From assembly GCA_034780895.1 (NCBI GenBank), contig JAUZTB010000057.1, forward strand, positions 433,572 to 497,571: a DNA stretch of 64,000 bases. Direction: 5' to 3'. The DNA comes from Rhynchobatus australiae. Taxonomy: Eukaryota. Below the pieces are notes generated by a model that made no database searches, was not told where the DNA came from, and saw nothing but the letters and a program-made list of their open reading frames with translations. Shown piece by piece: positions 10,247 to 63,279 of the stretch. How positions within the stretch are numbered: the stretch's first letter is position 1; each line of letters opens with the position of its first letter. A program made the translations under genes and the position numbers.

Positions 10247-11150
10247 CTACACTCCGCGCTGAGCGAATCTCAGAGTGAGAATGAGGAGAAATTTCACATA
10301 TTCCTTCAGCTGCTCCCTGAGCTTAGTCTGGGTCACGGCGTAAAGAGCCGTGTTCGTGCAGCAGCTCAGGAGCTGCAGCATGAAGCTCAGTTCCCTTATG
10401 GTCCAAGGTGAACACTCAACCACAGTAATGTGACACAATCGGAGCCACACAGAATTCACCGTAAACAGCGCCCACAGCAGGATGAAATTCCCCGACACAA
10501 CCAACAGTAAGATGAGGGATTTCCTGCGGTTCTTCATCTCCGGATCTCTGGGAATCTCTCCATTGCTCCGAACCTGAAGCCTGCTGCGGGCTCTGCTCAC
10601 CACTAAAACGTATCTGATGGTCAAAACATTGAGAAGGAGAATGAGGACAAATGGGATCACAGGGGTGAGGAGGTAATGGAGGAACTCGACTGCGCTCCAT
10701 GCCACTGAGAACAGAACACCGCCTCTTTCCCAGCAAAACCAAGGAAAATAATTAAACATGTATTCTCCAGAGAGCATGAAATACCAGAAAATGCTCTTTG
10801 AAGAGCTCAGCACGGTCACCGTCCCCAGAACCGCAGCCGCCGTTCTCTTGCTGCAATATTTCGCTTTCAGCTTTTGACAACGAATGGCCACAAATCGATC
10901 AAAGGTGAAAGCGACGGTGAACCAGACAGAACAGTCGGCGGCTGCTAAAGCAGGACGGCGTGAATATTACACATGGGGATGTACCCCAGGAAACCAAACG
11001 CTTCCCGATATACAATCGGAATCTGCATCAGTATCAGGTCGATGACAACGACCAATAGATCCGCCGTTGCCATGGCCACCAGATAGAGAGTGACGCCTTT
11101 GGAGAGACCGCACTTTCCCCGCGACAGGAACACAATCGTCAGCACGTTCA
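10247..11150 (-). pseudogene. GPR139-like class A GPCR exon 2, frameshifted (paralog A); exon 1 not found
   Basis: Acceptor 'ctcctcacag|TGAACGTG' at 11150. Motifs YLVAMATADLL, TFDRFVAIRC, DPEMKNRRKS and LLSCCTNTALY. A 1-nt deletion near 10946 gives CTT TAG instead of CTT TAC GCA in paralog B. Confidence 0.88.
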
Positions 11151-11946
11151 CTGTGAGGAGGGAAATAAACACAAACATGAGAGCGGGGTTGGAGCAACGT
11201 TAGCGGATTCACAGAGAGGGAAATCAAATGCAGAAACCTGCTCTTGGATTCAGATTTGGAGGTGGTTGTACCCGACCCCGGGGTTGTCTGCTGGAGACGG
11301 GGTTTATAGATCAGTTAAATCAACAAGGAACCGGCATCACCTCGACCAATAGACAGGTGAGAAGCGGTCGTTCCGTCGTCCGGAAAATATGCCTGTCCAG
11401 TGAATAATTCATGACGTGTTCCAGGTAATAAAGATCATAGTCCCCACCATCTGAGCTTCGGTTGACGGAGAGGTGATCTATTGACCTGGCTTGTCAGCGG
11501 AATCAACCGAGGGTCCTGATCCTGATGATTGTTCAGTGTTTCATGAGAGCGTCGCTGCTCATTGTGTAGTGACCGGGGGTCAGTGTGGTTTGGAGAACCG
11601 GTCACTCTCCCTGCTCTTCGTGCAGCGACTTTGTGTTAGTTGTGGGTGAATCGGATCAGAGTTCTCCGTCGATTGTTTGCCATCTGAGGCTGTGCCGGGG
11701 CCGCCACCTGCTCCTGGTTGGGAACATGACGCAGCCACGCTGGAGATTGTGGTGAAATTTGATCAGACCCCGGCGGAGCAGTCTTATTCAGCCGCATGTC
11801 GTTCCCGGCAGGGTGATGCAGGCGATGGGAAACTACCAGAGGTTCCAGTTGAAATTAGACCATGATTAATACAACAATATCAGTTTACTGTTTGCCGCAG
11901 AGAGCTCCGACAGCTGGTATGACTAGACACGGCAGCAGTGAGGAGA

Positions 11947-12015
11947 GCGTGAATTACAGGAACGGAAGTGCAGACAAACCATTACTGTCTGCACTTCCGT
12001 TCCTGTAATTCACGC
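11947..12015. repeat. Perfect inverted repeat (30-bp arms, 9-nt loop)
   Basis: gcgtgaattacaggaacggaagtgcagaca-aaccattac-tgtctgcacttccgttcctgtaattcacgc. Confidence 0.97.
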
Positions 12016-12123
12016 AATATGAGAAGATGGTATAGAGAAACGAAGGATAAATAACACGGAGACAAATGCCATTTAAGGCGTAAAAGATTTTTTTTCACAT
12101 TCAACCGCGCATACAGTTAGTAA

Positions 12124-12147
12124 TGCGAGAGGTCCCGGGTTCAAATC
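12124..12147 (+). pseudogene. 24-nt tRNA-Pro 3'-half fragment
   Basis: TGCGAGAGGTCCCGGGTTCAAATC matches vertebrate tRNA-Pro from the 3' anticodon stem through the T-loop; the rest of the tRNA is absent. Confidence 0.6.
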
Positions 12148-12219
12148 TCTCATAATAAGTTTTAATCATGTTTTAATAAGTTTTAATCTCTCATAATAAG
12201 TTTTAATAAGTTTTAATCA

Positions 12220-12800
12220 TGTTTACATGACAGAGTTGTGTTTTCTTGCGTCTATCTGGTGTGTGAATTACATCGTTTAATGGGTTTACTTTGGATCCAT
12301 TTAATCGCAGGCATCGTAATCTTCTCGATGAGTCGAACATGTGGGACCTTCCAAAACGTCTTACTAAAGTCCATGAAGACAACATCCACATCTCCACCTT
12401 CATCAAAGAACATTCATCACCTCCTTCAAGTTCTCGATCAACTTCGTAGACTTGTCTTTCCCCGCAAAAAGCCACACTGACTAACCCGAATTAAGCCACT
12501 GTTTCACAAATGCTCATGAATCCCGTGCCGAAGTCACCTCTCCAATCACTTTCTGACCACTTACGTGAGACTCACTGCTGTTCTGTTTCCAGGAATATCC
12601 CTATTTCACAGAACAACATGAACTCCTCACCATTCCGGGTGCACATCGTCAGTGGCTGGTGTGGAACCGACGATCTTGATCAAAGCCTCTTCAATCTCAT
12701 CTCTTGCCCCTCTCAATTACATGGGGTTTATCTCATCAGGCTCTGGGGACTTATCTCCTCTCGCATTTGATACTTTCAGCCGCGGATAAAGACTCTGACT
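12220..12800 (-). mobile_element. Degraded CR1 ORF2 fragment
   Basis: Reverse complement shows decayed ksPepDeinp..., glirvsqcgf and vdvvfmdfsktfgkvph segments. Confidence 0.6.
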
Positions 12801-13018
12801 GTCTAGATTATCTCTGCATCGCCAAACTTGAGACATTTTTTATCAGATCGCGCTTCAGCCTCGAACACTCCAGAGTAAGAATCCAAATTTGCCCTCCCTT
12901 TATTTGCCACTATTACTCNNNNNNNNNNNNNNNNNNNNNNNNNNNNNNNNNNNNNNNNNNNNNNNNNNNNNNNNNNNNNNNNNNNNNNNNNNNNNNNNNN
13001 NNNNNNNNNNNNNNNNNN

Positions 13019-13205
13019 TCCATTCACCCCTACCCTTTGTTTCCTATCTGCCAACCAGTTTTCTATCCATGTTAATACCCTCCCCCCAATTCCATGAGCC
13101 CTAATTTTACCCACCAATCTCCGGTGCTGCACCTTATCAAATGCCTTCTGAAAGTCGAGGTACACAACATCCACTGAATCTCCCTCGTCTATTTTCCTAG
13201 TTTAC
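13019..13205 (-). mobile_element. Young CR1 RT fragment abutting a gap
   Basis: DVVYLDFQKAFDKVQHRRLVGKIRAHGIGGRVLTWIENWLADRKQRVGVNG; nearly identical to 49010-49153 in the opposite orientation. Confidence 0.9.
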
Positions 13206-13647
13206 ATAGACTTTACATAGGTTGATGATTTCCATGAACGTGTGTGATTTTCTGCCTGCGGTTGAATTATTTCGCACCCCCAACATCCTGCCGCGGCCTT
13301 TCGAACCGAGCGCTGCCTCATTCTCATTTATTTTATCCTTCACCTGTCTTTCCATGAGGGTGTACCGTGAATTACATTTTCTCATCTGCTGTCAGTCCGC
13401 TCGCTTTCCCTTCTGTACCAGTGTCAAGTTGAAAAAGCAACTCACAACGAACTTCTGGTTCCCAGTCTTGAAAGTACAACCGGCCTTCATATTAGAGTTT
13501 CCAAACCTGAGGATGATGAATATCGAAAGCTCGCTAACGAGGTAACAGGGTCAACCGGCACACCTGAAATCAGACGCCATCTCAATGATGTTTTACTCAG
13601 GAAATTTTGTTGAGCCCAATGATCCACCGTGGACTCTCCACATGTGC

Positions 13648-13692
<45 letters not shown>

Positions 13693-13695
13693 CCT
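13648..13695. repeat. (CT)n microsatellite
   Basis: Direct reading. Confidence 0.95.
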
Positions 13696-15059
13696 CTGGT
13701 ATTTAAAGGCAAATTCAACGGTTTTTTCCCCGATGTTTTGGACCACTAGCTGTTCTTAATTGAATACAGTTCCACTGCCCTTGGAAAAGCGACGATTTTT
13801 CCACATCTGGCACCTGAATTTCTGGGCCCTTCTCGGCGTTTTCCTTTTACTTAAGCAATTTATGCACAATTATAAAGGAAGCAGATTCAATGTGCCGGCT
13901 TCCTCTCACACCCAGGCTCGCACTGTATTTTCACCCAAAGACTGTCGCTTCCAAACAAATAGTCTTGCTGAACGTCACTCGCGTCTCTTCCAGGTGACTT
14001 CCTCAGTTCTAACCACAGCGACGGTTGTAATGCTGCTGTTTCCTGACATAGAACTCATTCTCTTTGCTGCCAATTCCCATTCTCGTTCCACATTCACAAT
14101 TCTCCATCTCTGACTCTACCATTCCATTTCTGTCGCTCATTTGTTCATTGAGTTCAAATCGAGCTGCGCCACATTAAAAAAAATCCTGATCACACGGTAC
14201 CCCCATCGAATAACAGAGCTGAGTGGACTTCTATTTGACAGATATGTACAGATGTTTTCGCATGGGGATATTAGCTAACAATATGTGAAAGAGAACGGCG
14301 GAGACATCACAAAGGGTTTGCTTTCGCATATTCACTATTCCCTTAGTTCCTGCTCCATCAGAAATATCCAATTCATCTCTATCAATCTCAATCATCTCTA
14401 GTAAAATTATCGAGTCCTTGTGCAATCGGTTTTATGACACCCGATCATTTGAAACAGACATTTAACTGTCTTCATGTGGAACGGTGCAACATTACATTGT
14501 ATGCAGAAGAGCTTCGACATCAGCTGTCGTTGTGGTACAATCGGCCAACGATTCCATCAGTTCACTGCAAATTTGCTGGTTTGAGCCCACCCAGGAACGA
14601 CAAACTGACACTTCTGCCCGATGCTCAACCTACGTTATTTTTGTGGCGTGGGGCTGAAACTGCAAATCAACATTTCTTGAGAGTTGAAAGCTTAAAGTCG
14701 TGTCGGATTTGAAATGCTCCGTTGGACAAGAACAGCGAGCAACCGAGTGAAGAGACGACCACAGGATTAACGACCTCTGATTCATTAATTCTCTCTTTGC
14801 TGAGCTCTTTCTTTCTCTTTTATTTAGGCGTTATTCGGTTTTGATGAGGCTTATACCTATTCACCACTTATTTTCATATGATTCAACATGAACAGTAAAC
14901 ATTGTAATTGACATTGTTCACCAATTATGATTTCAATCTTTGTTCTCCTGATGAAACTAATACATTTTTTCTTAAATCTTCGGGTCTTTTCAGACATGAT
15001 CGCATCATACTGCGACGTTGACAGAGCACAGTGCGGCCTATGAAAATCACAGGGATGAC

Positions 15060-15410
15060 AAGGTTTGCAGTCGTAGAGTCGCCGAGAGATACAACTCCTT
15101 AACCTGCCCTTCGGTCAATCGTGTCCGAGCCGGCTATCAACTTTGCTGGTTTGCCACATTTCATCAACAGCCATTCATAGGAAGCCTACATTGATCCCAA
15201 TTATCATGTTTCCCACATTCCTGTCAACTTCCCTCAGATTTCACAACTCAGCTTCACACTGGGATCCACTTACAATGGTCAAGTAAATTGTCAAATCTCA
15301 CGCCATTGGCATGTGGGAGGAACTCGGAGAACCCTGAGGAAACGCACTCGGTCAGAGGAGGTACGTGAAACCTCAGCAAAGTCAGTAGTCGAGGTCACGA
15401 TTGAACGGGA
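15060..15410 (-). mobile_element. CR1-type 3' tail plus V-domain (HE1-like) SINE remnant
   Basis: 'gtgggaggaactcggagaaccctgaggaaacgcac...ggtacgtgaaacctc' is the reverse complement of a decayed V-SINE central domain. Confidence 0.5.
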
Positions 15411-15639
15411 TGTGGAAAGTCTGGACTCTGTACTGCAAAGGACAACGCTTTGTACTTCCGTGGGTGTTTACGTTCCTCGTAACCGAACTGTTATCCTTGG
15501 AATTAAAGCTGAATTGCAAATCAATTGCATGGTGATTTCGGGGATGATTTGTGTTGAAGGAAGATTAGCGTGGTTCCTGAACAAAGTTCCTGCACTGGAT
15601 GAAGGTCAGTTTCACTGTTATTATCATTACGTGCAAGAG

Positions 15640-16590: not shown

Positions 16591-17004
16591 TGCTGGCCCT
16601 CAGTTCAGGAAATCTGGAGTTCAGGAAATTTAAGAGCATAGAAGACATGGAACAAGAAGTGGAACGAAATATCCTTGCAGATTAAATAAAGCTAAGGACC
16701 AGTTTGTACTTATTTTACGTTATACGATGACATCAACTCTTGAACGGACAATCTATCTCGTTATGACCCTGCACATTATTGTCTACCTGCACTATACTTT
16801 TTTTTGCAATTGTCACACTTTATTCTTCTCCCTGTCATTGTTCTGCCTTGCACTGCCTCAGTGCAGAGCTGTGATGAATTCTGTTGGGTGAACGGGATGT
16901 AAGACAGGTTTTACACTGTACCTCAGTACATGTGACAATAAGAAACGAATTACCAATTCTATCAATATGTTATTCAGGGAAAATGTCGGGGAACACCTAC
17001 AAAG

Positions 17005-17650: not shown

Positions 17651-17689
17651 ATCGCACCTTTTACTTCGAGAGGTTAGTCATGGCACACA

Positions 17690-18570: not shown

Positions 18571-19299
18571 CTCCTTTCCGACAGCCCTGCCTTTCTGACT
18601 GACCGGAGCTCCTAAAATCTCATGATCCTCGGAAAGAATTTCACAACTGAGCCATGGAAACCTTCATCTGCTTTACCACACCAGTTCTGCAATCTGTTTC
18701 ATCAGCTCCGAAATTTCCGATTGAGATACTCTGGTTACTTTGAGATTGGTGAGCTGGTGAAAAAGGCGATAACGTTCAGTTGAGTTCTCCAGCATCAAAC
18801 TGGCAAAAGTTCGCTCCACATTATTTTCAATGAAACTCGGAGCTCTGTTTCACGGGGTGACGGCGGTTCATATTTATCGGGCTCGTCTTCGAGAACTGCA
18901 GCCACCGGCCTCCTGTGTTTATACTGATCCCACCTCAGGCTGAGAATATTCTGTGAGTGTGGCGCTGCTCTGATCCGCTCCTTCATGACACCGTTAGCAA
19001 TGACATCGGATTCAGTGGTGTGACTGCAAACATGTTGGTCTGACGGTCACTGTCCGACACCGGTGGAAACATGTTGAAACATTTGCCCAGCTTCTGTTTC
19101 CTCCCAGAACGAACCGGCTTCACTGAACTACCTCCTCTGTTTTGTTGTCAACGTCGCGTCACCCGAACCAGAAGGGGGCATCAAATCCTTGCAAACACCC
19201 ATATAGCAACGCGCTCCAGGAGCATAATTTCCAAAATTCACAACTAACCTCAGCCCTTTACCTAACCCTAACATCCCACAGCTCGGCAACTCCCCGACA

Positions 19300-20325
19300 G
19301 ATTCTGGTTGGAGGTACGTGACCAGTGGTGTTCCGCAGGGATCGGACTGGGACCTCTGCTGTTTGTTATGTTTCAAAATATCCGGGGTGAAAATGTGGAT
19401 TGGAGGGTTAATAAGTTCGCACATGATAGAAAATTTGTTGGTGTTGTGGGTTTTGTTGAAGGTTGATAAAGGATACATTAGATTGTAGAACAGTTGCAGA
19501 TGTGGGTGGAGAATTGGCGATAGAATTTATCTGACCAACTGTGAGGTGCTGCACCGGGAGATCGAATATAAATAGACTTTGCACTGTAACTGGCAACATC
19601 CTTCACAGTGATGATTGACAGAGGGATCCTGCGGTGCAAATACACAGCTCTCTGCAAATTGCTGCAGAGCTTGATGGGGCGGTATGAAAGCCGTACCAGC
19701 TCCTTCAGCTGCTCCCTTAACTTAGTCTGTTAGCCAAGGCATTGAAAACAAGAGTCGAGAAGTTATTTCGCTGCTGTTTAACACTCTGGTCAGGCCGCAT
19801 CTGGAGTATTGCACTCATTTCTGGTCGACCGTTACAGGAAGGACGTAGAGTCTATGAAGACGGTGCCGAAGTTCCAGGCTGCTGCTTGGATTAGAGGGCG
19901 TGTGCGGTTGGGAGAAGTTGGACTAACTTGGGTTGCTTTACCTGCAGCGCTGGAGGTTGACGGAAGAACTGACAGCTGTTCGGAAGATGACGAGAGACAC
20001 AGATAGAGCATATAGCCGGTATATTTCTCCCAGAGACGAAATGTCTGATAACAGAGTACGTGGATTTTAGGTGAGAGGCGGTAAGTTAAAAGGAGATGTG
20101 TGGGGCAGGTTTACTACCCAGAGAGTGTTGGGTGCCTGGAATGAGCTGTTAGGTATGGTGGTGGAGGGAAATACATATGGCGTACATGGTTGTGCAGATA
20201 ATGGAGGCTGATGGACATTGTATAGACAGAAAGGATTGGTTTATGAAGCATTGAAAAGACTTATTTAATTAGGCCAGCATATCATCGTGGCCCGAAGGGC
20301 CTGTTCCTCTACTGTACATGGTTTT
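19300..20325 (+). mobile_element. CR1 3' fragment, co-duplicated with the GPCR unit
   Basis: VTSGVPQGSDWDL and RPHLEYC segments; tail 'catcgtggcccgaagggcctgttcct'. Confidence 0.85.
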
Positions 20326-20655
20326 CGAACTCAGGTCCCTGGATCTTACACGTAAAACCTCAACCAGCGTGACGCAATTCTGCTCAGAAGAACAGACGTC
20401 AGATAATTTAAAGTTAAATTCAAGGTCGAGTGTTTTTTCACAGATGCAAAAGTAAAACAAATTAAACATGCATTATACCAAACTTGTTCAACGAAAGAAG
20501 CACATTTAGAACAAAGCAAAGTCACAGAATTGAGACGATATTCCTTCCAGTTCACAATTCCAGGCCCGATTCTGCCTGTTTCTCCCCAGTGTGTTTGGAG
20601 TGGGAGAGACGGAGTTGGTTCAGGCCGGAAACCAGCGGGGATTTATCAGCTCCTG

Positions 20656-21531
20656 TCAGCACTGAGCGCATCTCACAATGAGAGTGAAGGGAGATTTCAC
20701 CAGCTCCTTCAGCTGCTCCCTTAACTTAGTCTGGGTCACCGCGTAAAGAGCCGTATTTGTGCAACAGCTCAGGAGCTGCAGCGTGGAACCCAGTTCCCTT
20801 ATAGTATCCGGTTGAAGCCACATTTTGGAAACGAACCACATTCGGAACCACACAGAATGCACCGTAAACGCCGCCCACAACAGGATGAAATTCCCCGACA
20901 CAACTAACAGTAAAATGAGGGATTTCCTGCGGCTCTCCATCTCCGGATCTCTGGGATTGTCCCCACAGCTGGGACCCCGCAGTCTCCTGCGGGGTCTGCT
21001 CGCCACTAGAACATGTCTGATGTTCAAAGCATTGAGCAGGAGAATGAGGACAAATGGGATCACAGGCGTGAGGATGGAATGGAGGAACTCGACTGCAGTC
21101 AACAGAACACCCCATGTGCTCCAGCAAAACCAAGGAAAATTAACTAACCTGTAGTTTCGTAAGAGCATGAAATACCAGAAAATGTTCTTTAAACAGCTCA
21201 TCACGGTCACTGTCCCCATAACCACAGCCGGTGCAATATTTCGCTTTCAGCTTCTGACAACGAATGGCCACAAACCGATCAAAGGTGAAAGCGACGGTGA
21301 ACCAGACAGAACAGTCAGTGGCTGCGTAAAGCAGGACGGCGTGGATATTACACACGGGGATGTACCACAGGAAAGGAAAGGTTTCCCGATAAACAAACGG
21401 AATCTGCCTCAGTATCAGGTCGAGGACAACGACCAGTCGATCCGCCGTTGCCATGGCCACCAGGTAGAGAGTGACGCCTTTGGAGAGACCGCACTTTCCC
21501 CGCGACAAGACCATAATTGTCAGCACGTTCA
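20656..21531 (-). pseudogene. GPR139-like GPCR exon 2, frameshifted (paralog B)
   Basis: Acceptor 'ttctcacag|TGAACGTG' at 21531. TM motifs as in paralog A. Net 11-nt deletion after KYC (about 21230) relative to paralog A, plus an in-frame 4-codon deletion in ECL2. Confidence 0.9.
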
Positions 21532-22596
21532 CTGTGAGAATGGAAATATAGACAAAAATGACAACGGGTTTAGAACATCTTTCGCAGAGTCACAGAGAGG
21601 AAAATCAAATGTAGATACCTGTTCTTGGATTTAGAGTTGGAGGTGGTTGTACCCGACACACGGGTTGTCTGTTGGAGACGGGGATTATAGATCAGTGAAA
21701 TCAACCAGCAACTGAAAATAACGGCATCACCTCGACCAACAGACAGGTGAGAAGCGGTGGTTCCGTGGTCCAGTGAGGATGCCTGCCGAGTGAAAACTTC
21801 ATTATGTGTTCCGATAAAGGTCAAATAAAGGTCAAAGTCCTCAGTATCTGAGCTTCGGTTGAGGGAGAGGTGATTTTCGACCTGATCAGGTGGCGGAATC
21901 AGCCGAGGGTCCTGATCCTGATCATTGCTCAGTGCTCTGTGAGAGCGTCGTTGACTATTTCGTGGTGACCGGCGGTTAGTGTGGTTTGCAGAACGGTCAC
22001 TATTCCTGCATTTTCTGAAGCGACTGATGTTGGAGGTTATGTTGGATGTTATGACGCAGCCACACTGGAGATTGTGGTGAAAGTTGCTCCGGTCCCCGGT
22101 GGAACAGACTGATTCAGCTGCATATAGTGGCCGGCAGGAGGATGGGGGTGGTTGGAAACGACCAGAGGTTTCAGATTGAAATAAGACCATATTGAATGCA
22201 ACAATAACACTTTACTTATTGCTGCAGAAATTTCCGGCAGCTGGAATCGCCAGACACGGAAGCAGTGAGGAGAGTGTGAATTTTAAGTACCGTAGTGCAG
22301 ATAGTAATGGTTTATCGAACAAATAAATGTAGTTTTGGACGTGCCAGCAATATACGCATAATATCGAGAAACGAAGGATAAGTAACACGGAGATAAACAC
22401 AATTCAAGCCGCTGATCCCGCACATGGACCAGGTCTGTGTATGACATCTCCCTCAAACGGACTTCAGTTAGTGAGGACGTTCGGCTTTATTAACCAGCAC
22501 ATGTAATGAACAGTCCACCCACCAGACCTCTTTATCGGACCCCGTAACCGCTGCTTCTCACCTGTTTGTCGGTCGAGTCATTGCACAGAGACTTAC

Positions 22597-37421: not shown

Positions 37422-39272
37422 ATGCTGGACATATACAAAAGTGCTGAGGGAATTTTGTACGTGATCATTGCTGTCACTGGAGTTCCTGGTAAGTGCAAAG
37501 AGCAATTTAGGTTCTTTCATATTTGATTTAACCGTTGGTTACCGGTTTATGATCATATTACAACCTTCCGCATTGATGATCTTTATGGAAAATAGAGCAG
37601 CACAAAAATTTTCTTCGATGAATTCCCTGCACTTTTCACGACTTCGGACAACAAATAATTAAACTTTATTTTCCTCTAACTCTTGGATGCGCTGGAGTAT
37701 TGCCATTTTCTTCAGTGGGGCAAGTCCCAGAATTAGACCGGTGCTCGGGACAAGCGGCATTTCGGGCAAGTGTTACTGGGGAGAGTTATGTTGTGAATTG
37801 CACTGTTTCTGAGTTGTTAATCAGATTGAACACCTGGTCCTGTGGACACGTCTCACGATGGAGTCAGTTACAGTCGGATTCCATTGACCATTCGTCAAGT
37901 ATTTGGTCCAATCACCTGTACTGGTGGCCGCAGATCGACTAGCGAATGTCATGGAATTGAACTCACTCTGAATCTAATTCATTAACGGAGCTGCTCTGCT
38001 CCCTCTGCAAGCCTCTTCGGCCCCATCAGATGCTGACTTTACATAGCCCTGGTTAACCACTGCTAGTCACGGTTAATTCTGTGAAACTGAGACAGTAAGC
38101 AGGATTCATATCTAAAGGGCCATTCACTCTATTGCAACGGATGTCTGCACGTTTTCTCTCCGCCGTTCACCCCGTCTATCGCTTTAGCTCTTTATCCCTA
38201 AAGCAGACAGGCTGATCACCGTTGGGTCCGTGTCTAAATTTGTTGAACATGCAGCCACGCACCGTTTCCAACTCTTCCATTTCGAAACTGAAAGCCGAAT
38301 CCGCGTTCACACCCGAAGAACGTGTTAACTGATGCCCAGTGTCTGTTCTCTTCTCTATCTCCAGTGAATTTAGCGGTGATTGTGATCCTGTCCCTGGGAA
38401 AGTGCGGCCTCTCCACCTGCCCCACTCGCTACCTGGTGGCCATGGCAGCGGCGGATCTACTGGTTATTATCACGGAGGTTATTTTGTCTCGGATTAAATA
38501 CCATTACTTTTCATGGTGTTTCCTGAACATCACTGCTGTGTGCAGTGCTGTACTTGCACTGCGTCGGGCAGCATCGGACGGTTCTGTGTGGTTCACTGTC
38601 GCTTTCACCTTTGATCGATTTGTCGCCATTTGCAGCCAGAAACTGAAGACAAAATATTGCACCAAGGAAACTGCAGATGTGGTTCTAACAGCGACCGCCG
38701 TTCTGCTCTCTCTGAAAAACATTCCTTTCTACTTCACACAGGAAAGCGGAAAGATTGTTGACAATGTACCCTGGTTCTGTAGTCCGATGGACAGTTATTT
38801 CACTGACCCCCGGTGGGTGGCATTTGACTGGTTCGATGCGGTTTTAACTCCGTTGATACCTTTCGCTGTGATTATGATGCTCAACGCTCTGACAGTCAGG
38901 CACATTTTAGTGGCCAGTCGTGTCCGTAAGGGGCTCAGGGGTCAGAGAAAGGGGATGAACGGCAGTGACCCAGAGATGGAGAGCAGGATGAGGTCGGTGG
39001 TTTTACTTTTCACCCTCTCTGGTAGCTTCATCCTCCTGTGGATGCCGTTTGTTGCAGAATTCTTCTATTATCAGATCGCAGGAAATGGAACAGATCCGAA
39101 TGATTCTCATCTGATCTTTCACTTTGTAGGGTATTTATTGAGTAATTTCAGCTGCTGCACGAACACATTTATTTATGCGGTGACTCAGTCCAAGTTCAGG
39201 GAGCAGGTGAAGCACGCGTTGAAATATCCGGTCACATCAGTGCTTCAGTTCATCAGTAAAGCCGCGCCATGA
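37422..39272 (+). CDS. Intact two-exon GPR139/GPR142-like class A GPCR, 324 aa (exons 37422-37488 and 38365-39272)
   Basis: Exon 1 MLDIYKSAEGILYVIIAVTGVP with G|GTAAGT donor; acceptor 'ttctctatctccag|TGAAT'. 975 nt open frame with seven hydrophobic segments, YLVAMAAADLL, TFDRFVAIC, PWFC and SCCTNTFIY. Confidence 0.92.
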
Positions 39273-41999: not shown

Positions 42000-42755
42000 A
42001 ATAAATAGTGATTCGCCCGCGGACCTTCTGTTGATCCCCTATGAATAGTGAACCGTTGACCAGCTGTTATGGTGACCCTCTCCTGCTGACCCATGGAAAC
42101 AGTGAATCTCCTCCACTGAAGCCTTGTAATTATTACACTCTCGCGCTGACGTCCTGTAAACAGTAACCCTCTCTCGCTGACCCGCTGTAAATAGTGACTA
42201 TCCCGCGAACACCGTTGAAGTGACTACCAATCACACCCTATAAGTTGTGACGCTCTCCCGCTGAACCGCTGTAAATATTGACCCTCTCCCGCTGACTTGC
42301 AAAAGTTGACCTTCGCTCTCTATCTTCCTGTAAGTAGTGATCCTCTCCCACATAAATTTCTTCAAAGAGTGATCCTCTCCCACTGACGCCCTGTCAATAA
42401 TCATCATCTCCCAACACCCTCTCCCGCTGATTCTCGGAAAAAAACAAGTCTCTTACTCTGACCCTCTGTAAATATTGACGCTCTCCCGTCGACCCCCTGT
42501 AAATAGTGAACCTCTCACGCCGACCTCCTGCGAATCGTAACCATTTCCCACCAACCACTGTAAATAGGGACGCAGTCCCGCTGAGTCCCTGAAAATATTG
42601 ATGTCCTACCGCTGAATCCCTGGCAAGTGACCATCCCCCTTTGACCAGTAAATTGTCACCCTCGCTCTCCGTCTCCCTGTAAACAGTGACCCTCTCTCAC
42701 TGAGTTCCTGCAAATAGTGAACCTCTGCCACTGACTCCCTCTTTCGTTGAACCCC
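42000..42755. repeat. Degenerate minisatellite, unit about 30-40 bp (ctgtaaatagtgaccctctcccgctgacccc)
   Basis: Recurrent 'ctgtaaa.a.tgac.ctctcccgctga' units. Confidence 0.85.
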
Positions 42756-45700
42756 TGTAGCGAAGTGCCACGCACTGAGTTCAGATTGTAACACGAAGTC
42801 AGAGGTCTGAACTCGAGACTCGTTTATTGATTAGCTTTCCGCGCTAGCTTTTAAACCCGGTGAAAACCCGCCCTCTACAGGCGGAAGTGACGCCCACTGT
42901 ACGTCACCAACACTTCCCGCTTCCGAGCTCTCTCTCCTCTCTCGGAGAAGAGGTCCGCCGCCATTTTTCGGCCGGCCTTCCTGCAGACGCGCGCTCCGTT
43001 GCTGGAGCCGGTTCGCTTGACTCGAAGGTAGGTCGCAACATGACCCTCCCCCACAGAACCGGCGACACCCCTCCCAGAGTCCACAGGTTGGGGCAGTCGC
43101 TGTTTGGACGGTCTTCCTCTGTGCCGTGGGGCCTGAGCCTCGACTGTCTGTGACAATTCCACGTAGGCCGGTTTGAGACGGTCCACTGTGAACACTTCTT
43201 CACCCCCACCGCCCCCCCCCCCCCGATGTGCAGGACGTATGTGGTTGTTCCGTAGTATTTTGAATGGTCCCCCATACGGCCGCTGCAGAGGTTGCGGTGC
43301 GCTCCCCTTCCAATAAAAACAAGTTTACAGTTGCAGGTCCTTGGGTACACAGGTCGGGGTTTGTCCGTGTCGGGAAGTCGGTACGGGGGCCAGGTTGCCG
43401 AGCTTCTCGCGTAGTCTATCCAGGACAACCGAGGGTTCTTCCCCCGCCCCCTTTGGGCTGGTATGAACTCTCCTGGGACGATCAGGTGCGCGCCGTACAC
43501 CAGGTCGGCCGACGATATGTGTAGATTCTCTTTGGGTGCTGTGCGGATTCCCAGCAGGACCCAGGGGAGCTCGTCCACTTAGGCCCTTTCAGGTGGGCCA
43601 TGGGAGCCGACCAAGAGGCGGTGTAAGTGTTCCCCAGTCGGTTCGACTCTGGGTGGTAAGCGGTTGTATGGAGTAGACGTGCTCCCAACAGGCTGGCCAC
43701 GGCCGACCACGGGCTGGATGTGAACTGGGCACCTCTGTCGTTGGTAATTTGGACCGGTATTCCGATGTGTGCTATCCAGGTTGCGATCAGCGCTCGGGCG
43801 TAGGAATCGGCAGTGGTGTCAGTGAGCGGGGCCGCCTCTGGCCACCTTGTGAATCGGTCGACCATAGTTAGTAAGTACCTCGCTCTTCTCGACACAAGCA
43901 GGGACCCCAGAATGTCTGCATGAACGTGGTGGAACCTCTGGTGGGTTGGATCGAACTGCTGCAGCGGTGCTTTGGTGTGTGGCTACACCTTGGCTGCTTG
44001 GCACCGCACGCACGTTTGGGCCCACCCGCTGACCTGTTTGCGGAGCCCGTGCCACACGAACCTGCTGGAGACTATTAGAACGGTTGTCCTGATGGATGGG
44101 TGCACCAACCCGTGGATGGAGTTGAAGACTCGCCGCCGCCAGGCTGCCGGGACGATGAAGAGAGGCTGGACGATAGATATGTCGCAGAGGAGGGTCCGGC
44201 CACCTGGGTCTCCGAGGAAATCCTGCAGCTGCAAACCAGAGACGGCGATCGTACCTGGGCAACTCGTCGTCCGCCTGCTGCGCCTCCGATAGCGCGGCGT
44301 CGTCCACTCCCTGAGATGGGGCCTGGACAGCTCGTCTGGAGAGTGCGTCCGCCACGACATTGACCTTTCCCGAGACATGCTGGATGTCCTTGTGTATTAG
44401 GAGATGTCGGACATATAGCTGCTGACGGGCCGAGCAGGGATCGGAAGCCTTCGCGAAGGTCAATGGTTTGTGATCCGTGAATGCGGTGAACGGATTGCCC
44501 TCTAGAACGTACCGAAATGCCGGATTCTCAGGTTTGTGCCAGCAGCTCCCGCTGAAGCACCACACTTGAGTTCAGGCTGCCGCAGGTGCTTGCTGAAGAA
44601 CGCTAGGGGTTGCCAGCGCCCCTCGCTGAGTTGTTTCAGCACCCCACGCACTGCCGTGTTGGACACGTCCATTGTGAGGGCGGTTGGGACGTCCGTTCTG
44701 GGGTGCACAAGCATCGCACAGTTTTCCAAGTCTTCTTTGGCTTGAGCGAAAGCGGCCGTGGCCTCTTCGTCCCGAGTAATGTTCGTGCCTTTACCCGAGA
44801 TCAGGGTGAACCAAGGGCGCATGTCTTGTGCTGATGAGAGGAGGAAACGGCGGTAGAAGTTGACCAGACCCACGAATTCCTGCAAGCCTTTGACTGTGTT
44901 CAGCCGGGCGAAATGGCGGATCGCGTCTACCTTGGCGCGCAGGTGAGTTGTCCATTCTTTGGTAATTCTGTGTCCCAGGAAGTCAATGGTGTCGAGTCCG
45001 ATGGTTTATGTTGAGGCCGACGTCACTCAAGCGGGAGTAGAGCAGGCGGAGGTGGGACAGGCCTTCCTGGCGGTTGCGCGGGCTCTGAGGATGTCGTCTA
45101 AATAGATGAACGGAAAGTCTAAGTCCATTCTCCGGCCTCCATCAGTCGCTGGAACGTCTGTGCATCTGTGAAGAATTCTTCAGGCGAAAGCAATCCTGAG
45201 GAACTCAAACAGGCCGAACGGCATGATGAGCTCTGTCTTCAGGGTGTGCCGGGATTTGTTGGTATCCCCGGACGAGGTCCACTTTGGAAAAGATGCTCGC
45301 CCCGTGTAGGTTTGCTGTAAAGTCCTGTGTGTGCTGTAGAGGGTAGATATCTGCGGTTGTGGCCTTGTTCAACTGACAGTAGTCGCCGCACGGCCCCCAG
45401 CCCCCAGCTGCTTTGGGTGCCATGTGCAGTTTGGAATCCCATGGGCTGTCGGACCTCTGTACAATCCCCAACCCCTCCATACGTTTGAATTCCACATTCG
45501 CCGGCCGTAGCTTCTCCTGAGGAAGAAATCCCAGACGAACAAAAGGCTGTCTTGGCTGCCAGCCGCCGTAGCCATCAGTGGCGGCTGGTTTCGGCGTTTC
45601 CTGGGAACTCACAGGGCGGGCGACACCGTCGGGCTTCTGCGCCCCACCGCTGATGGTAGACACACCATTGAAGGTTGGGTCCCTCACTGCTGCCTCTTAG

Positions 45701-48503: not shown

Positions 48504-48504
48504 G

Positions 48505-49253: not shown

Positions 49254-49311
<58 letters not shown>

Positions 49312-49790
49312 CCAGTGCCTGCACACTGAGGCACTGTTGATACAGATCTGTGTCTGTACGGTGAGGTACTTTCGGTGTACATATCTGTGTCCTTACAGTG
49401 AGTTACTGTGCGTGTATACATCTGTGTCTGTATAGTGAGGTAATGTGGGTGAAAAGATTTCTGTCCCTGAAGTGTTGTTGTGCAGGTGCACACAGCTGTT
49501 TCATTGCAGTGAAGTTATGTGTGTGTCTAGAAATGTTACAGTGACATCCTGTGTGTATACAGAGCTGTGTCCATACAGGGTTTGACAGTTGGTGAATGGA
49601 AATATGTCCTTAGAGTGACGTACCATGGGTTTCTAGAACTATGCCCATACAGTGTGAGTGTGGGTGTGTCGAGCTTGTTCTTGCCATGAGTTACTGTGCC
49701 TGTACACATCGGTGACCTTACAGTGAGGTGACATGTGTGTCTTCAGCGTCTCTCTTCCATTAAGTTACTTCGTATATATTTTTGACCACG
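49254..49790. repeat. (TG)n followed by a degenerate TG-rich minisatellite of about 38 bp
   Basis: Recurrent 'tac(a)gtgaggt.actgtg...tacagatctgtgtc' units. Confidence 0.75.
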
Positions 49791-49807
49791 ACAATTTTTA
49801 TTGTAAG

Positions 49808-50070
49808 TGTGGTAACGCTTTGTGAACTAGGTTCAATCCCGGACACTGAAAGGAGTTTGTACGTTCTCCCCGTGTCTGTGTGGGTTTTCTCCGGGTGCTA
49901 CAGTTTCCTCCCACCTTCCAAAGATGTATGGATTAGGAAGTTGTGAGCATGCTGTGTTGGTGCCGGAAGCGTGGCAACACTTGAGGGCAGCCCCCAGAAC
50001 ACTCTACACAAAAGATGCATTTCACTGTGCGTTTCAATGTACATGTAACCAATGAAGATATCTTATTAAA
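49808..50070 (+). mobile_element. tRNA-derived V-domain (HE1-like) SINE
   Basis: B-box 'ggttcaatccc', then V-domain 'gagtttgtacgttctccccgtgtctgtgtgggttttctccgggtgctacagtttcctcccac'. Confidence 0.8.
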
Positions 50071-50739
50071 AATCCATTGGTCTGTTTAAGGCCCCAGTGC
50101 ACAGTAACTGGCACAATCAGTAACTGTGCCTGTCTGTTACAGTGCTGAAAAAAATATTAGCCCGGTGAAAATTACCTCCAATTTATTTTTCAGTGGTGTG
50201 TATCTCTCTGGGAACAAAAGACAACACCAGCTACCCCTTCCTGAAGATCTGCACAACGACAATGAAAATACATTCACTGATGACCCAACTGCAGGAATCC
50301 TCGTTGGCATTCCTTTTCCTTCTTGTAATGCAAATAGTGTTACAAATTGTGCTCGTCATACAAGTGTGAACCACATGCGGCAATGACATCACTGTGGCAC
50401 CGGGGCAAGGGAGAGGTACGAATGTACAAGGGCCTCATGGAGCTGTGACTAAGCACAACTTCAGCAATGGTAGGAAAAAACTGATGGTCCCCACCTGACC
50501 AGTGGTCTATAAACCATACAGTGGTGGTGAAATTCGACACAATACACCAGACCCCTTTGTGTCCATTGTAACTGTGAGGGAAGGGAAGGTGTCCTTGCAG
50601 TGAACTGCAGTGTAGAGAAAATTGTGCCTTTCCAGTGGGTTACTATGGGTGGAGAGATGTGTGTCCTCACAGTGAGGTGATTTGAATGTCATGACATGTT
50701 ACAGTATAGTATTGGGGGCTGATATTGATATCTCTGCTG

Positions 50740-51005
50740 ACTGCATTGTGTTGGGTGTGTAGTGGTCTGTCTCCTTAGTGCAGTGTTGGGGATGTACTGG
50801 TTTGTCCCCTTACAGTCCAGAGCTGGGGTGTATACAGGTCTGACCCCTTACAGTACAGAGTTGGGGGGTGTACTGGCCCGTCCCCTTACAGTACAGTTTT
50901 GAGGTGTACTGGTCTGTCGCCTTACAGTACAGAGTTGGGGGGTGTACTGGTCTGTCCCCTTACAGGCCAGTTCTGGGGTTTTTCTGGTCTGTAACCTTGC
51001 AGTGC
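50740..51005. repeat. Minisatellite of about 36-39 bp (gtactggtctgtccccttacagtacagagttgggg)
   Basis: About seven recognisable units. Confidence 0.85.
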
Positions 51006-55165: not shown

Positions 55166-57053
55166 GTGTTTCCTTGTTGAGGGAAGTAGATGAGGACATT
55201 TCTGGGGCTCTGGCAGATATTTTTGTATCCTCCTTAACCATTGGTGAGGTAACAGAAGTCTGGGGGATGGATAATGTTCTGCTTTATTGAAGAAGGTTGC
55301 AAGGACAAGCCAGAGAACCACAGGGCGGTGAGCCTCACATCAGCGGTGGGAATGTTACTGGAGGGGATTCTGAAGGAGAGCATCCACCAGCATTTGGAAA
55401 GGCAGGGACTGGTCGTCGACAGTCAGCATTGCTTTGTCCATGGGAAATGAAGTCTCAGAAATTTGACTGAGGAGGAGCCGAAGACTATTGATGAGTACAG
55501 GGTGGTAAAAGCTGTCCACATGGCTTTTGGCAAGGCACTGATAAAGGCCTGCCTGGTAAGCTGGTCTGGAAGGTGAGATCACATGGGACAGAGGGGATGC
55601 TATTGAATGGATACAAGACCGACTCGATTGCAGAGCTTGGGGGTAGGGAGGGCTGTTTCTCAGATTGGAGGCCTTTGACCAGTGATGTGTGGCAGGGATG
55701 GGTGCTGCCTCCCCTTTTGTTTGTCACATTCATGTTTGGTAAAGAATGTTGGTAGTGTGAGCAGTAAGTTCACAGATGAATCCACGACTGGTGGGTCATG
55801 GACAGTGAGGAATCTTGTCCAAAGTTATAACAGGATACTGATCATCTGGTAAAGTGGCAAAGGAATGACAGGTGTAATTTAACTAAGACACACGCTAAGT
55901 GATGCATTCTTTGGCAATTTAAAGCATGCTTGGGCATCCATGGTGAATGGCAGGGCCCGGCTGTTGTTGAAAGGAGAGACCGATAGCACAGGGACATAGT
56001 TCCCTGCAGGTGGCAACACAGGTAGAGAGGATAGTGAAGAAGGCACATGGCATGCTGGCCATGTGGCAGCAACAGAGGCAGTCAGTGCCGGAGGTGGGAC
56101 CTCATGTACAGGACAGGTTGTGCCGAGGGGCTTGTTTCCGGCCTGTATACATATATGAATGGATGAATTTCTAAATCTGATGGAACTGCTCGGGTTCATT
56201 CAGGGCTCAGAGCAGCACAGGTCAGCGGCACACAAAGTCCTGTCACTCACTGATACCCGGGGCTCCATGAACCAGGTGAAACAACGTTCACAGAAGTGAG
56301 ACCAGGAACCACCCACACACACATCCCCCCAGATCCTCACCCACACCCATTGCTATGGTACACTCCTGTGTCCGACATTCCCAACAGCCCTGTGTATTGG
56401 GACCCTTTTCTTCCCTCTGGCATTGTTACAACCAGCAGCCTGACATGGGCACTGCTGAGACAACCACACTGGTGTGACTGGTCACACAGGGACCAGGCCA
56501 GGTCAGGGCCGCAGCTGTCCTTCCCTCGATGTGAGGAGATCATCACGTGACGTGGGATTCACGAATACCTGTTCTCATTTTACCTTCAACTTTGTTCCAA
56601 ACTCCGTCGCCTGGTTACACATTCCCACAGGCGCATCACGAGAATGGGTTCATTCAGTCTCAATCACTGTGGACCTCAGAGCCCAGTGTGGCCAGAGCAG
56701 GACACAGACAGAAACAGCATCTGCCCCAGATAGTGAAACCCCGGGAATCTCAGTGATCCCTTCCTTACGGTGGCGCAGCACCTGTACACTTTACTCGGTT
56801 CTCTCTGCCAATGATTACATTCTGATCTTTGCCATGTCACTTTAAGTCTGGAATTCCCACAGCAGCACTATTCTGGGAGCAGCTGATGCAACCTGGTTGT
56901 TCTGTGAATGGAACTAACGTCAATGATCAGGAGACTGGTGCCGCTGGAGGGTTCTCTCCTCTATAATAAGAGCTGCCGTGAACATCTCATCACTGTTTTG
57001 GCAACAGGCCCAGTGTGTTGCATCGACAGAGGAATCATCACTTCTCCGCGAAA

Positions 57054-57123
57054 ATGGGAGCCCAGATACGTGGACAAGTCCTGGCCATTGACTATCCAGT
57101 TCTGGCAGCTGTCGGTGTTCCCG
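57054..57123 (+). CDS. Orphan GPR139-like exon 1 (MGAQIRGQVLAIDYPVLAAVGVP)
   Basis: 70 nt from ATG to CCC G|GTGTGT, phase 1, ending in the family ...GVP motif. Upstream TATAATAA 56962-56969, ACGTCA 56917-56922 and CCGCTGGAGG 56941-56950. A gap follows at 57191-57290. Confidence 0.72.
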
Positions 57124-57299
57124 GTGTGTAGTTCCACAGAGGAACGCATCCTGTTCATCTCTGTTAACTCTGTCGGTGCTGCTGATGAACNNNNNNNNNN
57201 NNNNNNNNNNNNNNNNNNNNNNNNNNNNNNNNNNNNNNNNNNNNNNNNNNNNNNNNNNNNNNNNNNNNNNNNNNNNNNNNNNNNNNNNNNAAATTCTTA

Positions 57300-59457: not shown

Positions 59458-59557
59458 NNNNNNNNNNNNNNNNNNNNNNNNNNNNNNNNNNNNNNNNNNN
59501 NNNNNNNNNNNNNNNNNNNNNNNNNNNNNNNNNNNNNNNNNNNNNNNNNNNNNNNNN

Positions 59558-59635
<78 letters not shown>

Positions 59636-60330
59636 ATATCTTAAAGGGACAATCACTAATAGTAACCTGGTCCATAAAACATGGCCTTGTCCAATCACCT
59701 GGAAGCCATGGCTAAGTAAGCTCACTAGCAACTCTACTTCCTCAGGAGGCTGAAGAAATTTGTCATGGCCCCCTTGACACTCACCGACTTTATCGATTCA
59801 CCAAAGAAAGCATCCTGCCGGATTCATTCCGGCTTGGCATGACAATTACTTTAGCCGCGATGGCAAGATACTACAGAGAGTTGTGGACAAGCTCAGCACA
59901 TCAGAGAAACCAGTTCCCTTCCATACACTCTGTCTGTACCTCTTTGCCGTGGTGAAGCAGCCAGCAGAATCAACGATCCCATCCACCTGGGTCATTCTCT
60001 CTTCCCCCCACCCCCATCAGGCAGAAGATACAGGAACCTGAAGGCATAATCCACCAGGTTCAAGGACAAGTTATTTCCCTCTATTATTCGACCAGTGACC
60101 GGTCAACCAGTGCGATGAAATGGACTCTTGACTTCACAATCTACCTCGTCGCGGCCCTTGCACTTCATTGTCTGCCCGCACTGAACTTTATCTGGAACAG
60201 TGACTCTTTATTCTGCATTCTGTGATTATTTCTTTCCTTTTGAACTATCTCAATGTACTTCTGTATGGAATGATTGGTCTGGATCGCATCCAAAACACGC
60301 GGTTTTTCACTGGTTCCCGAAAGATGTGAC
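59558..60330 (+). mobile_element. (CA)n plus Rex1-like LINE 3' end
   Basis: 'caactctacttcctcaggaggctgaagaaatttg' (LYFLRRLKKF-like) and 'catcaggcagaagatacagg'; near-identical copy at 63590-64000. Confidence 0.75.
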
Positions 60331-60339
60331 ATCAACAAT

Positions 60340-60460
60340 GAAGGATGGGCGATAAACCCTGGTCAGCCCCTCCTTATCAAGGGGCGATGAAGGTTGGGCA
60401 ATAAACCCTGGTCAGCCCCTCCTTCTCAAGGGGCAGTGTAGGATGTGCAATAAATGCCGG
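60340..60460 (+). repeat. 49-bp tandem repeat (about 2.4 copies) derived from a LINE/SINE 3' tail
   Basis: 'gaaggatgggcgataaaccctggtcagcccctccttatcaaggggcgat' starts at 60340, 60389 and partially at 60438. Confidence 0.8.
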
Positions 60461-62034
60461 CAAGTCCTAACCTTCATGCACTGTGAAGCTGCAAATACCT
60501 CCTCCCTGGTGATATGGACGTTCTCCAACCCATTTCCACTTGTTTCCTTCATGTCTGAAAAACCACGATTTTCTCCACATTAAGTATAGAGGAGACATGT
60601 TCGTTAAAGTTCTCATGCGGCGCAAGACATTCGGGGCCCTGATCATCTCTGAGGGAACTAACCCTCTCCCTCGCCACCACGGTGTGTCCTTGCTACATTC
60701 TTTTTACAACGGAACAACTTGAGCCACATTACTGCCTTCGGGACCTTCACCCGTGGGCGGCCAACGAAAAAGCGATAATCGGCTCAAGGGCTTCCGCTAT
60801 TTCGTTTCTAGACTCCCGCAAAATCCGAGGACTCATTCGATCAGGCCCTGTGTATTTATCCTCCTATGTGCGCTGTGAGGCTGAAGATACCTCCTCCCTC
60901 GTCATATCAATGTTCTCCAGCCCATCTCCACCTGTTTCCCTCATCCCCTCAGCAACCATGGTTTGAAACAGAGAATAGAACTTTTCCTTAAAATTACCAT
61001 CCATGCGGCTCAGGACGTTCGCTGCCCTGCTTGTCTCTGAGGGACCTGCTCTCCCCCGAGCCACACTTTTTTAATGCAGCTGGAGAACCTCTTGGGATTT
61101 CACTCTGGAAGTTTATTCTTAATTTTCTCTTAGTCATCAAGGGATTCGAACCAACCAGACCTCTCAAACTCAATGGATGCTCCTTTCCTTTCTTGACGAG
61201 AACTTAAATATCTTCATGCAGCCAGTGTTCCCTAAGCTTGCCAGGTTTACCCTTCCCCCTCATAGGAACATGCTGTTCCTGGACACTTGATATTACAACC
61301 TACAAAGGCTCCCACGTTCCATTCGTTTCAGTCGCTTCAAACAGTCTCCGCCAATCGACGTCTACTGGATACTGTCTAATTCCGCCCAAGTTATCTCTTT
61401 TTCAGTTTAGTACTGGGGAATATTGGGGAAATTAAAAGCTCCCGCAGAAAAAAAAACTCTATTTGTCTCACAAATATGTGTCATGAAATCCAGAAGAAAA
61501 GCTCGTTCGTTGGATTTTATTGCAATCACGAAGAAGCCCCGAGAGCGGCTCTACTTCGATTGGAGTTCGAGGAGATTTGGTATGACATCTGACGGTCTTG
61601 TAAATTTATTTTGGTGTACGGTGGAGAGTATTCTGACGGCTGGTCTGGAAGCCCAATGCACAGGATCGAAAGAGGGTGCAGAGGGTTGTGGAGTAATCAA
61701 GCGACATCGCCCGCACAACCCTCCCGACCATCGAGGGCATCTTTTAAACGCAGGGCTTTAAGAATGCAGCTTCCATCACTGAGAACCCTCACTATCTGAG
61801 AAATACTGTTCACCTGACTACCATCAGGGAGCATGAAGACCCACACTTCCCAATCCAGGAACAGCTTCTTTCTCTCCGCCATAAGATTTATGAACGGTCC
61901 ATGAACATCACCTGATTGCTGCGTATTTCATTATTTATTTAAAAGTTTCGCGTAGTTTTATGCCTCTTCACTTTACTGCTCCGTCAAAAAAAACACATTT
62001 CACGGCATTGGAGACGGTGATGATAAATTGATTC

Positions 62035-63279
62035 TGATGGTGAAGATGCGTGCGATCCACCGTGACTTGACCGGTTGGATTCTGAACGGGCTTGCCTCGA
62101 GAGCACAAACCCACAGAGCGATGGGACTGAATCTAGCTGGAGGTCCGTGAGTCGTGGTGTTCCCCAGCGATCGGATCGGGACCTTTCCTATTTGTAAAAT
62201 ATCAAAGTTAACCTGGACCAAAATGTGAATGTGTCCGCAGACGAAACAACGATTAGTGGCGTTGTGGATTGTGTTGAAGATGGGCAAAAGGTACAGTGGT
62301 ATAGGGATCAGTTGCAGATATGGGCGGAGATTTGGCAGATGGAGTTTAATCCGGTCACATGATCGATGTTGCATCCTCGAAGATCAAATATAAAGTGACT
62401 GCACACTGTTAATGGCAAGAAGCTCAACAGTGTTGATGGACAGAGGGATCTTGTGGTGAACATCAATAGCTCTCTGAAAGTGGATGCACAGGTTGATAGG
62501 GCGATAAATATGGTGTATGGAATGTTTGCCTCTGTCAGACCAGGCACTGGCTTCAAGAGGCGGGATGATCCCTCGCTGCTCTTTGAAGCTCCAGTTTGGC
62601 CGCACCTGGAGTATTGCATTCAGATCTGGCCGCCACGTTACAGGAAGGATGTGGAGTCTTTGAAGAGGGGACCGAAGTTCCAGGATGCTGCTTGGATTAG
62701 AGGGCATGTGTTGTTAGGAGAACTTGGACAAACTTTGGTTGTTTCTCTGGAGCGTCGGAGGTTGAGGGGAGAACTGATAGCAGTTCATAAGATTACGGGA
62801 GACACAGACACAGTAGACAGCCGGTGTCTTTTCCCAGGGACGAAATGTCTGATACCAGAGTAAATGTCATGAAGTTGAGAGGCAGCAAATTCAACGGAGA
62901 TTGCAAGGCAGGTGGTTGTTACACAGAGTGTGCCTGGTGCCTGGATTACGCTGTCATGTGTGGCGGTGCAGGGAAATACGATTGGGACACAGGAAAGTAC
63001 AGAGAATGGAGGGTTATGGAGATTGTGTGGGCAGAACTGATTAGCTTAGTTAAGCATTTAAGAAATTGTTAAATTAGCCCGGCACAACACCGTGGTCTGA
63101 AGGGCCTATTCCTGTGCTGTACCTTGTTTTCCAACCCAAGCCTCTGGATCTATGAATCATAACCTCAAACAGCCTGACCTAATTCTGCCGAGAAGAACCA
63201 AATTCATATAATTCAATGTCAAAGTCAAGGTCGAGGTTATCGTCAGAAGCACGCGCACGAACGCACAGGTGCAACGAAA
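62035..63279 (+). mobile_element. CR1 3' fragment plus unique flank, paralogous to the 3' flanks of GPCR paralogs A and B
   Basis: After the CR1 tail, 'ctctggatct...aacctcaaacagc...aattctgccgagaa...aaagtcaa' matches 9825-9930 and 20335-20430. Confidence 0.8.

Follow-up and report, generated by a model that had tools for sequence, protein, structure and literature searches.

A receptor family of more than 800 loci in the ray Rhynchobatus australiae, cousin to GPR139 and likely a chemoreceptor repertoire

A stretch of 64,000 nucleotides (nt) of the Rhynchobatus australiae genome (contig JAUZTB010000057.1, positions 433,572 to 497,571; called the window here) holds one intact G-protein-coupled receptor (GPCR) gene together with broken and partial relatives, which raises the question of what this receptor family is and what its copies might sense. 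An earlier note on this DNA had proposed a birth-and-death cluster of GPR139-like receptors. Our analysis indicates that the family is real, far larger than the window and wrongly named, and that it is likely an undescribed chemoreceptor repertoire, with olfaction as the most probable sense.

We located receptor bodies by a translated search with the window's single long receptor frame, and found three, C on the plus strand and A and B on the minus strand. Gene C is complete:

37422-37488, plus strand: gene C exon 1, 22 codons plus 1 nt, ending GVP
38365-39272, plus strand: gene C exon 2, which with exon 1 gives an intact class A GPCR
37314..37324, plus strand: Olf-1/Ebf (O/E)-like site upstream of gene C, followed by a TATA-like sequence

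A phase-1 GT-AG intron lies inside the first transmembrane helix (TM1) of gene C, and the spliced frame encodes 324 amino acids followed by a stop. The protein matched Pfam 7tm_1 above the cut-off (85.5 bits versus 30.5, E 5e-24), as did 23/24 aligned family sequences. The model of a manta-ray relative with 73% identity contained seven helices and helix 8 (pLDDT, the predicted local distance difference test, 87.5), and N1.50, D2.50, DRF, the two disulfide cysteines, W6.48 and NTxxY were near-invariant in the family. These receptors are class A (rhodopsin-like) GPCRs.

Searches of the 2.23-Gb genome gave 3,834 candidates with C and 3,104 with A, of which 130 and 150, respectively, were scored, and every scored candidate was a match. 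The TM7 motif of the family had 839 exact matches genome-wide, compared with 12 for the control, and an exon-1/donor pattern, which misses the gene C subfamily, had 436 compared with 2. The genome contains more than 800 two-exon class A receptor loci. Since the TM7 motif was present in 15 of the 21 loci recovered by independent coelacanth and Xenopus queries, a family total of ~1,150 loci is plausible, an estimate in which small contigs may hold haplotype duplicates. The expanded repertoire proposed earlier is thus borne out by the motif count; the copies are clustered, as had been described, but instead of one cluster there are many, spread over 21 or more large scaffolds. On the 21 scaffolds longer than 10 Mb, 60/87 exon-1 matches fell within 2 Mb of a scaffold end, where 8% would be expected, a bias to which scaffolding may contribute. 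Family copies retain the TM1 intron (~0.55-1.8 kb where both exons were seen), indicating spread as DNA duplication, and a retrocopy origin was rejected for this reason.

The state of the copies was assessed in the first 100 listed motif matches, 54 of them from one scaffold; two were A and B, and the other 98 were inspected, with open frames scored by profile coverage. Seven did not match the family, exon 2 was interrupted by an N or by the end of the contig in 36, and 55 were gap-free. A full open exon 2 was found in 40 of these 55 copies and not in the remaining 15 (one of which appeared open by tblastn), in keeping with the births and deaths of a large, rapidly turning-over family that the earlier note had envisaged. 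Public data contained 2,304 related protein clusters, and the best 120 comprised 117 with shark or ray names and 3 without a name; no chimaera was among the named matches listed, and no search aimed at chimaeras was made. Ray and shark copies intermix within subfamilies, which suggests that the expansion is older than the ray-shark split.

Databases automatically call these proteins 'probable GPR139', as the earlier note had said, and at times capa or vasopressin receptor-like. The best solved-structure match of the family profile was indeed human GPR139 (58.5 bits versus 47.2, E 5e-15), and the position of the phase-1 acceptor in TM1 is common to the family, ray GPR139, ray GPR142 and the single ray genes L168/L169 and L170, which places the family in the wider GPR139-like clade. 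However, the ray genome carries one GPR139 and one GPR142, both outside the family. Gene C is identical to ray GPR139 at 64/270 positions (~24%), and a tree in which the family was constrained to group with GPR139/142 was rejected (approximately unbiased (AU) test, p 0.0012, 28 rows). The GPR139-like identity holds for the wider clade and the TM1 intron, but not for a clade, or one-to-one orthology, with GPR139 or GPR142.

The elasmobranch family came out as one clade (100/98) in a maximum-likelihood tree of 38 selected rows, with an amphibian/sturgeon gene as its sister (100/99). The next branches outward were coelacanth/teleost genes with L168 and L170, then unnamed proteins that are, at a guess, lancelet sequences, and GPR139/142. 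A FastTree tree of 134 rows agreed. On this phylogeny, the family and GPR139 are cousin clades. In fishes and the coelacanth, low-copy relatives have been named GPR210A/B (Rinne et al., 2019, PMC6504862, a paper in which the word 'shark' does not occur), and 'Orphan 139-like' appears in PMC5207463 as a label for non-mammalian GPR139-like receptors. The coelacanth/teleost proteins P0231, P0241 and P0265 and ray L168 and L170 branch next to the family, and we infer from their taxa that they are GPR210A/B, which are low-copy, unlike the family; the family's own sister is represented by P0230, P0289, P0305 and P0310. The two single ray genes are L168/L169 (G000:C65:27.2 Mb) and L170/L196 (G000:C2:82.9 Mb). 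In the tree, L168/L169 and L170 are orthologues of the coelacanth/teleost orphans, and the intron of L170 is ~12 kb.

The sister gene was found in 20 amphibian clusters, each from a different species (frogs, salamanders, a caecilian), and in sturgeon and reedfish (P0230, P0286-P0305 and P0310, auto-named 'probable GPR139' or uncharacterised). Because every amphibian cluster came from a different species, a single copy per species is suggested, and amphibians apparently keep the gene as one copy. It has no one-to-one partner in the ray, standing at 30-37% to all 118 matches, and word-limited searches returned none from teleosts or amniotes except one weak match. A restriction of the gene lineage to cartilaginous fishes was rejected. 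What remains of the lineage-specific family proposed earlier is the expansion, which is elasmobranch-wide.

Selection was estimated from 37 disjoint pairs drawn from 101 open ray copies, a sample weighted to the C and A subfamilies. The family is under purifying selection, with an overall ratio of nonsynonymous to synonymous substitution rates (dN/dS) of 0.29 (0.25-0.32). The ratio was 0.18 in the inner membrane half, 0.19 in intracellular loops 1 and 2, 0.33 in the pocket, 0.40 in extracellular loop 2 and 0.63 in extracellular loop 3. The pocket was defined as 30 positions counted from class A anchors and set before the comparison. The 22 amphibian orthologues were 94.5% identical in the pocket, compared with 77% overall and 79% in the inner TM. 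For ray subfamily C the pocket figure was 51%, below the 72% overall and 85% in the inner TM, and for subfamily A/B it was 71% (76% overall, inner TM 86%); it fell to 32% across the 101 ray copies. The part that is most conserved where one ligand is presumably bound is thus the part that varies most in the ray, and the family combines a variable outer half, including the predicted ligand pocket, with a conserved cytoplasmic side.

Arginine or lysine at 6.51 was kept in all aligned single-copy relatives, but in only 4/101 ray copies. The agonist residues of GPR139 include F3x33, H5x43 and N7x38 according to PMC5430874; with W6x48 as the fourth, all four occurred together in 0/101 copies and three in 7, and gene C has one. 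For a cousin clade in which these residues are mostly lost, aromatic amino-acid sensing should not be carried over. D3.37 was present in 84/101 and D/E5.39 in 82/101 ray copies, and E7.36 was frequent, which would make the pocket acidic and suggests cationic ligands. No OR, TAAR, V1R, V2R or T2R family was among the Pfam families listed for 24 members; TAARs are not known to have a Pfam family of their own. The tree, whose rows contain no TAAR, puts the family elsewhere.

The regions upstream of the copies carry a recurring element before the TATA box, first noticed in 27 upstream regions. With 70 loci added, 72 regions fell into 33 mutually unalignable groups. The O/E consensus printed in PMC3247239, allowed at most one mismatch between -150 and -30 from the ATG in one random member per group, was found in 9.2/33 groups, compared with 1.0 in shuffled sequence (at most 5), 0.6 in more distal upstream sequence and 2.0 for introns; the figures for 18 held-out groups were 6.0 versus 0.5. 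The site lay mostly 11-16 nt upstream of a TATA-like box. A de novo motif search recovered the O/E-like site joined to a TAATTG-type homeodomain core (log-likelihood 108 versus 51 in one shuffle), and this composite was present in 6.7/33 groups versus 0.45 in shuffled sequence. Gene C and both lone first exons of the window (below) have the O/E-like site at two mismatches or fewer. An 11-letter Olf-1 consensus matched 0/72 regions at one mismatch and 23/72 versus 11.6 at two, and general TAAT and E-box counts in the upstream regions showed no enrichment. Mouse OR promoters are enriched in TATA boxes and in sites of the O/E and homeodomain types. In OR enhancers, Lhx2 and Ebf sites abut as a composite, for which the published probe has a spacer of 1 nt; the joined homeodomain core and O/E-like site resemble this architecture. 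Since the promoter groups have a common ancestor, the enrichment shows that one element, a putative Ebf site, has been conserved, and not that it arose repeatedly. Taken with the diversified pocket, it lends support to a chemosensory role.

The other features of the window that belong to the family are the following:

11150-10247, minus strand: gene A exon 2 (end of TM1 to C-terminus), its frame broken by the loss of 1 nt near 10946
9379..10246, minus strand: gene A 3' flank, with a long interspersed element (LINE)-end junction typical of the A/B subfamily
22732-22597, minus strand: gene B exon 1, 45 codons plus 1 nt, ending AVP, donor GTAAGT, A/B subfamily type
21531-20656, minus strand: gene B exon 2, its frame broken by the loss of 11 nt near 21228, with an in-frame 12-nt deletion near 21100
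19296..20655, minus strand: gene B 3' flank, with a LINE-end junction as in the A flank
34169-34235, plus strand: first lone exon 1, gene C type, 22 codons plus 1 nt, donor GTAAGT, E 1e-38
34058..34068, plus strand: O/E-like site of the first lone exon 1, ~11 nt upstream of the TATA box
57054-57123, plus strand: second lone exon 1, of another subfamily, 23 codons plus 1 nt, weak GTGTGT donor, E 6e-8
56939..56949, plus strand: O/E-like site (2 mismatches) of the second lone exon 1, ~13 nt upstream of the TATA box
62125-63279, minus strand: lone A/B-type 3' flank, stopping at a run of Ns and lying within a tandem duplication

All six receptor-locus traces claimed earlier were located: the intact gene, the two frameshifted ones, both first exons that stand alone and the isolated 3' flank. 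Indels in A and B were called against the nearest open paralogue of each. No indel was listed at the gene A frameshift in the contigs of one run, but no long contig there spans the site. First exons were sought with two DNA profiles built from 30 paralogue exon-1 regions, neither of which located an exon 1 for gene A in the window. The common exon 1 described earlier is therefore seen in C, B and both lone exons but not in A, and it is short (22-23 codons) in C and the lone exons but not in B. Gene B exon 1 was considered as an orphan, and this was rejected. A run of Ns begins less than 300 nt downstream of the first lone exon and less than 100 nt downstream of the second. Each lone piece ends within 300 nt of such a run, so its missing part may be hidden; the pieces are real, but they cannot be counted as dead loci, and only A and B are demonstrably broken.

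The LINE-end junction of the lone flank was matched in 22/30 loci found with gene A (A itself among them), and immediately past the window edge a 90% copy of the flank leads into the 3' end of a receptor. A chance LINE was rejected as its origin, since the junction recurs beside family loci. The tandem duplication spans ~4 kb (59558-63279 and 63537 onward; 95% alike over 464 nt in the window, 90% over the flank) and may represent either a recent duplication or a pair of haplotypes assembled in tandem. The gene B intron contains an inverted repeat (70%; 21731-21903 and 22411-22577), one arm of which is also found in the gene A intron (11341-11489).

Elsewhere in the window lie a decayed long-terminal-repeat retrotransposon (42834-45696, minus strand) with frameshifted pieces of reverse-transcriptase-type RNase H (PF17919) and integrase (PF00665), and a LINE reverse transcriptase frame (PF00078, 48495-49153), a 146-nt piece of which recurs inverted at 13062-13207 with 97% identity, suggesting a young element. 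Many older pieces are CR1-like by eye. Broken reverse-transcriptase-like frames at 6739-8086 (plus strand) resemble Penelope elements by eye and had no Pfam match. Degenerate tandem arrays occupy 49314-51003 and 42134-42735 (units of 37-38 nt and 31 nt), and a local duplication of ~2.7 kb (24402-26970 and 27120-29832, 69-81% alike) is without receptor sequence.

How might such a family work? We give a probability of roughly 0.6 to a reading in which only some of the sensory neurons express any given copy and each copy has its own external ligand, with one G protein common to all. The ancestral gene would have bound one fixed ligand, as the amphibian gene may still do. In the shark and ray copies, the basic residue at 6.51 would have disappeared and the pocket would have diverged, with a single common G-protein interface maintained. 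Ebf and a homeodomain factor would drive the copies in sensory neurons, few of which would switch on any one copy, and the water-borne ligand would differ from copy to copy. The signal would be carried by the Go/TRPC2 path of microvillous neurons in sharks, Go with TRPC2 being described for the shark nose in PMC10116579. Amines, basic amino acids or basic peptides would be the preferred ligands of the acidic pocket (D3.37, D/E5.39 and often E7.36).

Several observations weigh against this. Ebf factors are not specific to the nose, since B cells, fat and many neurons use them too. The strict O/E-like site occurred in just ~9/33 groups, under a third, and gene B exon 1 has no O/E-like site nearby. 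A first, mis-spaced promoter pattern was not enriched (7 versus 4.4), the homeodomain core mostly stands 0 or 2 nt from the O/E-like site, compared with 1 nt in the mouse composite probe, and transcription starts were taken from TATA boxes. In no region did dN/dS exceed 1, so these figures give no sign of positive selection. A catshark brain-plus-nose library had no GPCR among its 50 most specific genes; V2Rs are also missing from that top 50, which makes this counterpoint weak. Catshark OR genes are reported to be expressed in spleen, testis, stomach and ampullae and not in the nose.

The same birth-and-death and the same variable pocket would equally fit immune sensors, and Ebf1 functions in B cells. 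The family could instead be a diverse repertoire for sensing ligands in cells other than sensory neurons, directed at microbial or self peptides and amines in B cells or other leukocytes, gut, skin or gonad. This could also accommodate the frequent expression of catshark chemoreceptor-family genes in spleen, testis, intestine and rectal gland. We consider it unlikely, though the strongest of the rivals: the O/E-homeodomain pairing is one described for olfactory receptor genes, and the GPR139 group is neuronal in origin. Mostly passive amplification, in which a receptor gene caught in duplicating subtelomeric DNA yields copies that are for the most part redundant and decaying, is improbable. 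It would explain the strong scaffold-end bias, the LINE flank carried along in 22/30 A/B-type loci, the 15/55 broken gap-free copies and the higher dN/dS of the youngest pairs (0.53-0.66 at dS <0.35), and haplotype duplicates are possible on small contigs; it sits poorly with a cytoplasmic-side dN/dS of 0.18-0.19, subfamilies common to ray and sharks, the many public protein clusters (every named one among the best 120 being from a shark or ray) and a promoter motif retained where flanks cease to align. Taken at face value, the automatic names would make these extra GPR139/GPR142 copies sensing tryptophan and phenylalanine, for which the leading structural profile match and the common TM1 intron position speak. 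We regard this as very improbable, given that the genome already has one of each, that a joint grouping is rejected, that gene C and ray GPR139 share so little identity, and that the agonist residues and a basic 6.51 are so rarely found in the ray copies.

The family can be set beside several receptor groups already described. GPR139 and GPR142, orphans of class A that respond to L-Trp and L-Phe, resemble the family in the phase-1 acceptor before the TM1 asparagine and in the lack of a proline at 7.50, but are present as one copy each rather than hundreds, and their agonist residues and basic 6.51 are mostly lost in the family. In outline the family resembles the OR, TAAR, V1R/ORA and V2R/OlfC families: it is large, clustered and subject to birth and death, its genes are compact, the N-terminus is short and the pocket varies, and part of its promoters combine putative O/E and homeodomain sites with a TATA box. 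It differs from them in its ancestor and in a coding intron in TM1. A precedent for chemoreceptors of such ancestry is offered by the nematode srw candidates, also large and fast in turnover, which arose from the FMRFamide/myosuppressin receptor group (PMC2576165), a group to which GPR139 has been linked. Srw-bearing clusters ranked 7 and 9 in our feature search. Unlike them, the family has the Pfam Srw domain (PF10324) in 0/24 members and is nested among vertebrate genes as an independent expansion.

We found no description of this expansion in the full-text literature, most subscription journals lying outside the reach of the search, and the family name had no match in the supplementary files of PMC8455134 (12/24 files) or PMC13188829 (8/8 files). 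PMC10869828 gives cartilaginous fishes 20-62 olfactory receptor genes (ten species, mean 43.8), the fewest of any vertebrate group despite their large noses, and PMC8455134 asserts that their GPCRs are relatively few. The latter claim is contradicted, whatever the function may be, by a family under selection that has hundreds of members and goes by the name 'probable GPR139'. If it is olfactory, the puzzle of large noses with few receptors would be resolved and a receptor family of separate origin added. We put forward tentatively, at a little under even odds, that this is a fifth vertebrate olfactory family of several hundred to a thousand genes, derived from a neuropeptide-receptor-like cousin of GPR139 and placed in an Ebf/homeodomain receptor-choice programme. 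If so, the view of cartilaginous fishes as having the smallest vertebrate olfactory repertoire would be overturned and the single Xenopus gene would represent the ancestral state. The apparently single orthologue in Xenopus and axolotl makes it possible to approach in the laboratory what the ancestral receptor bound and where it was expressed.

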